From assembly GCA_051647685.1 (NCBI GenBank), contig JBOFEG010000041.1, forward strand, positions 33,952-97,951: a DNA stretch of 64,000 bases. Reading direction: 5' to 3'. Positions 4,394-4,984 of this stretch are shown one piece after another; position 1 is the stretch's first letter, and each line of letters starts with the position of its first letter. Source of the stretch: Chlamydiales bacterium. Lineage in GTDB: Bacteria; Chlamydiota; Chlamydiia; Chlamydiales; CALTSX01. Under the pieces are notes generated by a model, which ran no database searches, had not been told where the DNA came from, and saw only the letters and a list, made by a program, of their open reading frames with translations. Made by a program: the position numbers and the translations under genes.

Positions 4394-4984
4394 TTATTCC
4401 GGCGCAACTTCTAGTTTTTCTAAGGTTTCTAATATTTTTTTTCTTAGGTTATCTTCTTTGTAGCTATTATCAAAATCAATAATTCGGCCCGATTCAATTT
4501 CAGAAAATCCATATACAACAAGCGCTAAATCGGACAGTATTCTATTTTCTTCTTCAGTTAATGTATTGAAATCGAGTTCATGATCAAATACGCGACAAAA
4601 TTCATTACAAAATGTGGAACCATCAATATTTCCAGTTAAATACATATCCATAAGATAATATATCCTATGTTTATCCATTTTTCCGTTTCTGTTTAAAGGG
4701 ATTCTTAGGCTTTCTTTCGTTTCTATAATTTTTTGCCGTAATTCTTCTTTTGTATAAAGAAACCCAGATCCTGTTTCAGATTCATCAAGTCGACCAGCTA
4801 CTCCAAATAATTCAGAAAATGCTTTATATTCCTTTTTTGTTAGTATCTCTTTATCTAATTCTAAATTATAAAATGGACAATATTTACTACAAAATTTGAA
4901 CTCATTAATCTTTTTACATAAATACATGTCGATAAGATAATATAATTTATATCTTCCGAGTTTATTATTTAGATTCTTATCCAT
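4394..4984 (-). CDS. Tandem-duplicated immunity-like protein (2 x colicin-D-immunity-like repeat)
   Basis: 196 aa = two homologous ~95-aa halves (aa 1-102 and 103-196). Both begin with MDK and share YYL(I/M)DMYL..I....FC..(Y/F)C..F..ELD...LT..E and L(R)(Q/K)KI(I/L)ET.E.L. The pattern resembles the colicin D immunity (ImmD) family as I recall it. The ATG overlaps the upstream gene's stop (ATGGATAA). Confidence 0.5.
   Translation of the reverse strand: MDKNLNNKLGRYKLYYLIDMYLCKKINEFKFCSKYCPFYNLELDKEILTKKEYKAFSELFGVAGRLDESETGSGFLYTKEELRQKIIETKESLRIPLNRNGKMDKHRIYYLMDMYLTGNIDGSTFCNEFCRVFDHELDFNTLTEEENRILSDLALVVYGFSEIESGRIIDFDNSYKEDNLRKKILETLEKLEVAPE

Follow-up and report, generated by a model that had tools for sequence, protein, structure and literature searches.

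What does the 196-residue open reading frame (ORF) on the minus strand of a 64-kb stretch of a Chlamydiales contig (hereafter the window) encode, and how did it come to consist of two similar halves? The ORF lies directly downstream of the gene for a 648-residue toxin-like protein, in a locus whose order, mfd - EamA - immunity - toxin - SNF transporter, recurs in the orthologous loci (Table 1). The orthologous genomes considered here are that of the window and three others, referred to as L001, L002 and L005, whose orthologues were reached via the proteins P0002, P0003 and P0004, an exact-sequence look-up of the ORF itself having returned no contig; a metagenome-assembled genome (MAG) entered as "Chlamydiales bacterium" contains the identical protein, recorded there as hypothetical. 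In all four genomes the ORF has no internal stop and comprises two stretches matching PF09204 (Colicin_immun), making its product a two-domain polyimmunity protein. The 648-residue protein is syntenic in L001 and L002.

Table 1. Features of the toxin-immunity locus; positions count from the first letter of the window.
Feature	Position	Strand	Basis or remark
Immunity ORF, 196 residues, two predicted tandem ImmD-like domains (polyimmunity protein)	4394..4984	-	PF09204, AF2 model, Foldseek
Repeat 1 (residues 1-102), adjoining the toxin gene, fast-evolving	4679..4984	-	35% identity to repeat 2; orthologue rates
Repeat 2 (residues 103-196 and stop codon), conserved	4394..4678	-	PF09204 alone; orthologue rates
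Copy 1 of the junction 13-mer, where the toxin stop (TAA 4977-4979) overlaps the immunity start (ATG 4982-4984)	4977..4989	-	
Junction 13-mer, copy 2, in frame at the boundary of repeats 1 and 2 (G101-K102-M103-D104-K105)	4671..4683	-	
Second 13-mer common to the repeats, encoding an (L/I)YYL motif	4650..4662, partner 4932-4944	-	Marks the 282-nt register
Codon 99 (AGA), where the family-typical start Met falls in repeat 2	4688..4690	-	Sequence comparison
Toxin-like protein, 648 residues	4977..6923	-	Hydrophobic N-terminus, hydrophobic segment, TPR repeats, C-terminal toxin domain
C-terminal toxin domain, 97 residues, predicted BECR-fold RNase related to CdiA-CT(NC101)	4980..5270	-	AF2 and Foldseek

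The two halves of the immunity ORF, repeats 1 and 2, are homologous. They are 35% identical (BLASTP, E 1e-17) and both fall within PF09204, which settles the concern, raised in an earlier note on this DNA, that their similarity might be only compositional. The whole ORF scores 28.3 bits against the PF09204 cut-off of 22, in two matched stretches; taken singly, repeat 2 reaches 24.7 bits and repeat 1, at 13.5 bits, stays below the cut-off. An AlphaFold2 (AF2) model of the protein, with a mean predicted local distance difference test (pLDDT) score of 84.8, has eight helices, four per repeat, and a low-confidence linker at residues 97-99. Its top two Foldseek matches are the ImmD chains 1tfk_B and 1v74_B (probability 1.00, target-normalised template-modelling (TM) score 0.74), and the predicted model superposes on ImmD with a root-mean-square deviation of 3.0 A over 88 columns. 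An ImmD-like four-helix fold is hence predicted for each repeat. ImmD was reached by fold comparison only, as searches of PDB sequences with the ORF and with a 68-sequence profile returned nothing significant.

The partner of this protein would be the C-terminal tip of the 648-residue protein, which matches TPR families at residues 317-382 and, over its last ~95 residues, no Pfam family, the colicin D family included. The AF2 model of the toxin domain (mean pLDDT 77.8) was built from a shallow 9-sequence alignment; Foldseek places CdiA-CT of E. coli NC101 (5i4q_A) at rank 1 (E 0.013, probability 1.00, TM 0.56/0.61), followed by RelE, HigB2 and another CdiA-CT. The tip is therefore modelled as a BECR ribonuclease (RNase) fold nearest to CdiA-CT(NC101), although the toxin profile found nothing significant among PDB sequences. 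In a weak phmmer alignment to 5i4q_A, the invariant R23 falls on Arg200 (EEGR/EQGR) and D43 on Asp220 (DPRG in both); outside that alignment, the invariant E67 and H79 are spaced 12 residues apart, as are Glu236 and His248 of NC101 (PMC5737660). Arg200 and His248 are crucial to the tRNase activity of NC101 (PMC5737660), and the tip is presumably an RNase, probably a tRNase like CdiA-CT(NC101), its toxicity being presumed from this likeness. Homologues of the toxin domain, 40-62% identical, ride on other carriers, namely an Hcp/TssD fusion in the locus L003 and Rhs-type proteins in L004, L006, L008 and L010-L020. From its place directly behind this domain and its predicted fold, the ORF is presumably the immunity protein of the adjacent toxin and would neutralise it.

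How does this pair relate to what has been described? Polyimmunity loci and proteins are an established part of polymorphic toxin systems, as set out in the passages on them in Zhang et al. (2012; PMC3482391), in agreement with the earlier note's remark that duplicated immunity genes are known from such loci. With the systems described in those passages, ours has in common that several immunity domains share a polypeptide whose gene immediately follows one for a toxin having a variable C-terminal domain, and that related loci hold tandem immunity genes and orphan cassettes. It differs in having only two copies of one small ImmD-like domain, which evolve at very different rates, and ImmD is not among the prominent homogeneous polyimmunity families named there (SUKH, Imm6, Imm11, Imm28, Imm33, Imm36 and Imm41). 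ImmD itself (PF09204; PDB 1V74, 1TFK) resembles the ORF product in the Pfam match above cut-off, in the predicted four-helix fold and in following a BECR-fold RNase toxin (here a predicted one), but is a single-domain protein, and the partner toxin here lacks a match to the Pfam colicin D nuclease family. The CdiA-CT/CdiI pair of E. coli NC101 (PDB 5I4Q; PMC5737660) provides the best fold match of the toxin tip, down to the Arg and Asp placed on Arg200 and Asp220 by the weak alignment, but CdiI(NC101) is an unrelated, club-shaped helical protein, and the carrier here is a TPR protein with a hydrophobic N-terminus rather than CdiA. As ImmD and CdiI(NC101) share no similarity (PMC5737660), the immunity protein is ImmD-like rather than of the CdiI(NC101) type. 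Overall, this Chlamydiales locus, with its two-domain ImmD-like polyimmunity protein, belongs to a known kind of system.

The two-domain architecture is constant among the orthologues and scattered beyond them. The syntenic loci of L001, L002 and L005 all carry the fused ORF, with 190 or 196 residues, and the version with two separate ORFs, for which the earlier note had suggested comparing orthologous loci, occurs in none of the four genomes. The closest relative is L005, a Logan contig (SRR13494436) that is ~95% identical to the window, its repeats having 93-95% nucleotide identity to those of the window. Over positions 1-1762 of this contig, only the last ~130-160 codons of the toxin gene are left, with an unrelated gene on the opposite strand upstream and the two-domain immunity gene intact; this appears to be an orphaned remnant of the toxin tip whose immunity gene has been kept.

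Searched exhaustively with a profile, 1.84 billion representatives yielded 280 relatives, mostly single-domain proteins of 90-110 residues. Among the best 150 of these 280, eight besides the query protein have two matched stretches (P0012-P0016, P0054, P0067 and P0109). Beside the same toxin domain, the immunity gene is mostly of the single-domain kind, as in a Parachlamydiaceae MAG (L008) and in L003, L004 and L010-L020, and is of the two-domain kind in L006; by sequence comparison, two-domain forms occur in several unrelated loci of the ImmD-like family. In L006, positions 3-2209 hold an Rhs-type C-terminal tip with this toxin domain, the two-domain immunity protein P0012 and then the start of another Rhs-tip-like ORF. 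Five contigs (L023-L027) carry two separate paralogous immunity genes, 65% identical and in the same frame, split by one TAG and 15 nucleotides (nt); in L025 this gene pair occupies positions 2968-3600, downstream of the same toxin domain. L012 has, at 43-1943, an immunity gene, a short toxin-domain fragment and a second immunity gene, which looks like an orphan cassette array.

These relatives bear on how the two domains came together. In a neighbour-joining (NJ) tree of the domains with 200 bootstraps, support is 94.5% for a clade of repeat 1, 100% for one of repeat 2 and 67.5% for the grouping of both as sisters; of the other tandem proteins that the tree included, P0015 alone has domains that form a sister pair, and in P0067 the two domains are mutually nearest by pairwise distance. 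The duplication took place before the divergence of the four genomes, probably within this lineage. Given the single-domain relatives and the unfused in-frame pairs of L023-L027, duplication followed by fusion is a credible origin. These pairs resemble our locus in joining two in-frame paralogues of the same immunity family to the same toxin domain; unlike it, they retain the TAG and spacer, and at 65% identity would represent a younger duplication. They suggest how near the unfused state is to fusion. In its present frame, repeat 1 ends with a helix and a short tail (...EELRQKIIETKESLRIPLN) that can be aligned to the C-termini of single-domain proteins (...EKELRQKIQETQEKLNRVEKNKGSH, ...DQLKQKIAETRTKLDSASN), so that the loss of a stop codon would have sufficed to fuse the genes. 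Of the earlier note's scenario, duplication and fusion of an immunity gene therefore stand on the two homologous domains, the single-domain relatives and the unfused pairs elsewhere; the frame change that it placed in repeat 1 is not supported, the C-terminal helix and tail being intact, and neither is its further element, a relic of the junction.

This relic was a 13-mer, GAAAAATGGATAA on the minus strand, which the earlier note had read as the stop/start junction duplicated together with the gene. The underlying observations are correct. Direct reading of the minus strand over 4200-5400 finds the same 13-mer at both boundaries, 306 nt or 102 codons apart, and these two copies are the only ones in the window, where shuffling would lead one to expect 0. 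The toxin frame ends at the first site with AAG AAA AAT GGA TAA, and the next ORF begins inside it with ATG GAT AAG, an 8-nt overlap; at the second, the immunity ORF reads GGA AAA ATG GAT AAA and runs through, and Met-Asp-Lys opens both halves, in keeping with that note. Such isolated 13-mer repeats at short range (13-600 nt) are no rarity in the window: leaving aside one tandem array, there are 6, where a first-order Markov model predicts ~1.

The two copies do not occupy corresponding positions, however. A second 13-mer shared by the repeats is offset by 282 nt, which is the register of both the BLASTP and the MAFFT alignments and places M103 opposite L9; the junction 13-mer, offset by 306 nt, is 24 nt out of this register. 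Among the orthologues, only L005 keeps it at both sites. The two junctions of L002 have 10 nt in common (AATGGATAAA), and those of L001 11 nt (ATGAATAAAAA), all coding and in a different register: the first Met of L001 aligns with L5 of the window protein, so that its junction match is out of register as well. With dS between the repeats at ~1, synonymous sites are saturated, and an unselected relic of 13 nt would be unlikely to persist.

The boundary between toxin and immunity gene is itself variable. The ATGGATAA overlap is present in the window, L002 and L005 and absent from L001 and from all single-domain loci, in which the toxin stop is followed by 1-10 nt and then ATG. L001 reads TGA-T-ATG, with the repeat 1 N-terminus MNKKADRYKLYYL; the single-domain gene of the Parachlamydiaceae MAG reads TAG-T-ATG, with the N-terminus MYKKADKRRIYEL, matching the start of repeat 1 in L001; L003 has TAA-A-ATG and L004 TAA-CT-ATG. 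In these loci the toxin terminates with the family-typical ...GPLKxIxK; in the window, L002 and L005 it is longer by two residues (NG). The overlap looks like a variant junction state, with four more codons on the immunity gene and two more on the toxin gene.

At the inner boundary, the family's N-terminal motif, M-x-x-K-x-D-K-R-R-L-Y-W-L, is informative. D104-K105 fall on its conserved DK without a gap, and the family-typical Met of repeat 2 is four codons upstream of M103, where L001 and L002 have ATG and the window and L005 have AGA; the boundary reads ...PLS-M-NGE-M-NK in L001 and ...PLS-M-NER-M-DK in L002. From this upstream Met, repeat 2 of L001 (MNGEMNKNRIYYL...) aligns gaplessly with repeat 1 of the same protein (MNKKADRYKLYYL...). 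An off-frame TAA at 4693-4695, 2 nt before codon 99 and present in all four genomes, mimics the usual junction of stop, spacer and ATG. As speculation, this TAA and codon 99 might mark the original fusion point and the start of an ancestral second gene, though such a triplet is weak evidence in an AT-rich gene.

Why, then, are the two sites identical over 13 nt? At the first site, an N-G-stop that overlaps M-D-K leaves no freedom to nine of the 13 bases (AATGGATAA); the bases at the second follow from G-K-M-D-K with the preferred A/T-ending codons, which leaves a run of A's as the remaining coincidence. Given the D-K quasi-repeat, the overlapping coding and the A-rich coding, the identity is best read as coincidence, and the 13-mer is most likely no leftover of the duplication. 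Two further lines of analysis were given up. Parsimony on the genome tree cannot polarise the first junction, because the toxin tip and repeat 1 have another closest pair than the flanks. Concerted evolution in L001, where both repeats start with MNK and those of the others with MDK, was dropped because the first MNK aligns with L5-N6-N7 of the window protein, out of register.

The two repeats have evolved very differently. Between the window, L001 and L002, the flanking EamA and SNF genes have dN 0.02-0.03 and omega 0.04-0.08, the toxin trunk dN 0.07-0.18 and omega 0.15-0.49, the toxin tip dN 0.23-0.27 and omega 0.20-0.40, repeat 1 dN 0.25-0.27 and omega 0.36-0.80, and repeat 2 dN ~0.08 and omega 0.15-0.26. 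Repeat 1 and the toxin tip thus evolve about three times faster than repeat 2, whose nucleotide identity across the three genomes is 0.88-0.94. In a sliding window, divergence peaks at ~5257-4735, which takes in the toxin tip plus the initial ~80 codons of repeat 1, and within this hot spot the window and L002 are the closest pair, in place of L001 and L002 in the flanks. A second mosaic stretch lies in the toxin trunk at 6007-5632 (window against L001 and L002), and together the two suggest recombination within the toxin gene. Over the three or four genomes compared, the rates would fit a toxin tip and repeat 1 that either diverged together or were exchanged as a cassette, while repeat 2 stayed constant.

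Taken together, we favour, with a probability of roughly 0.7, a polymorphic-toxin-type pair with duplicated and fused ImmD-like domains, in which the 13-mer is not a relic of the duplication. In this scenario the 648-residue protein would carry a C-terminal BECR-fold RNase domain as the toxin, and the ORF downstream would be its immunity protein, probably translated by coupling to the toxin gene through the overlap of its start with the toxin stop. A single-domain immunity gene would have been duplicated before the four genomes diverged, most likely by way of a tandem gene pair, such as another lineage still has, whose intervening stop codon was then lost. The copies of the 13-mer would sit at non-homologous positions, their identity stemming from the double D-K of the N-terminal motif (M-F-D-K-x-D-K-R-R), from the nine bases held by overlapping coding and, for the remainder, from A-rich Lys and Gly codons. 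Repeat 1, diverging in step with the toxin tip, is probably the toxin-matched domain, and the conserved repeat 2 may have a constant task, such as that of a second binding site or a scaffold.

Several observations weigh against this scenario. The sister grouping of repeats 1 and 2 reaches only 67.5% bootstrap; the a priori chance that an exact 13-mer recurs is small; and M103 is conserved in 4/4 genomes, so that some shared constraint on both sites is possible. The N-terminal alignments are short and made ambiguous by the D-K quasi-repeat. The ancestral form of the toxin boundary is uncertain, since the flanks group L001 with L002, yet only L001 lacks the overlap, in a region that recombines. 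Finally, the sequence-only match of the toxin domain to 5i4q_A is not significant (E 0.17-1.7).

Which other histories could account for the repeated 13-mer? If the immunity gene had been duplicated with its overlapping stop and start, and a frame change in repeat 1 had later fused the copies, the exact recurrence at both boundaries 102 codons apart, the MDK opening of both halves and the retention of both sites in L005 would all be expected. An alternative frame at the second junction even reads ...QKRKNG-stop, its KRKNG-stop recalling the KKNG-stop of the toxin; this candidate was rejected, as the likeness ends beyond the 13-mer itself. We consider such a relic very unlikely, for its sites are out of register, synonymous positions are saturated, the 13-mer is lost in L001 and L002, the overlap that it should copy is missing from L001 and every single-domain relative, and the C-terminus of repeat 1 is intact in its present frame. 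A short gene-conversion tract, copying one boundary onto the other in the lineage of the window and L005, would explain why full identity is limited to the two closest genomes and why L002 shares 10 nt between its junctions; but the identity breaks off sharply at 13 nt in either direction, shorter than usual tracts, and most of it is forced by coding constraints, and we regard this history as hardly credible. Quite unlikely, too, is that both 13-mers are working translation-initiation regions, with the A-rich leader and ATG GAT AA under selection and repeat 2 also made from M103, as the earlier note had offered as an alternative. The conservation of M103 in the four orthologues agrees with it, as do the similar anti-Shine-Dalgarno (anti-SD) pairing energies upstream of the two sites (-3.8 and -3.5 kcal/mol) and a Met near the start of domain 2 in the tandem relative P0054. 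However, the linker just before M103 varies (NRNGK, SMNGE, SMNER) and lacks a conserved SD, and of the 7 other full two-domain relatives, 6 are without a Met where domain 2 begins. Moreover, over the 43 ORFs of at least 150 residues in the window, mean pairing energies are -2.4 kcal/mol at gene starts and -2.2 at internal in-frame ATGs, so that SD pairing has no power to discriminate on M103; this suggests that SD use is weak in the window, or that first ATGs are poor proxies for true starts. Independent translation of repeat 2 is thus not borne out.

The pattern of rates and the hot spot underlie both a further history of the locus and a proposal on the division of labour between its domains. 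In the former, a cassette of toxin tip and immunity gene would have recombined in upstream of a resident paralogous immunity gene, the incoming repeat 1 being fused to the resident repeat 2 only later. The hot spot, and with it the change of closest pair, coincides exactly with the toxin tip and most of repeat 1, with repeat 2 following the flanks; the modest sister support would be expected, and repeat 1 stands equally close to its best outside relatives (the L008 immunity protein, 46-49%) and to repeat 2. Non-sister domains are paired in the tandem relatives P0012, P0013, P0014 and P0016, and L012 has apparent orphan cassettes. Repeats 1 and 2 are nevertheless mutually nearest clades in the tree, and the N-terminus of repeat 1 in L001 has long gapless similarity to repeat 2; we deem the incoming cassette unlikely, and prefer duplication within the lineage. 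As to function, it is conceivable, and we propose it tentatively as a minority view, that repeat 1 travels and co-evolves with the toxin tip, the two forming an exchangeable cassette, and determines specificity, and that the slowly evolving repeat 2, as a fixed module, has a role of its own. This role could be that of a recombination arm, of cross-protection against sister alleles, of binding a conserved host factor or of a stand-alone product from M103. If true, this would amount to a defined division of labour within a polyimmunity protein of an intracellular bacterial lineage. The unequal rates of the domains provide a simple, testable idea as to the half that recognises the toxin.

Beyond the locus itself, a cassette of an NC101-like BECR RNase and an ImmD-like immunity protein appears to be common to Chlamydiales and to Bacteroidota-type Rhs/Hcp loci. 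Two-domain versions of this small immunity fold are found in several unrelated loci, with unfused in-frame pairs and fusions both on record. For genome scanning, the 13-mer is a warning that short sequences repeated exactly at two boundaries of genes or domains can stem from overlapping coding and A-rich codons rather than from shared descent.

Elsewhere in the window, on the plus strand, the ORF at 17876-21751 encodes a Ser/Glu-rich protein of 1291 residues, coiled-coil-like in appearance, and contains at 18584-18954 a tandem repeat of 3.3 copies of a 114-nt (38-residue) unit with 97% identity.

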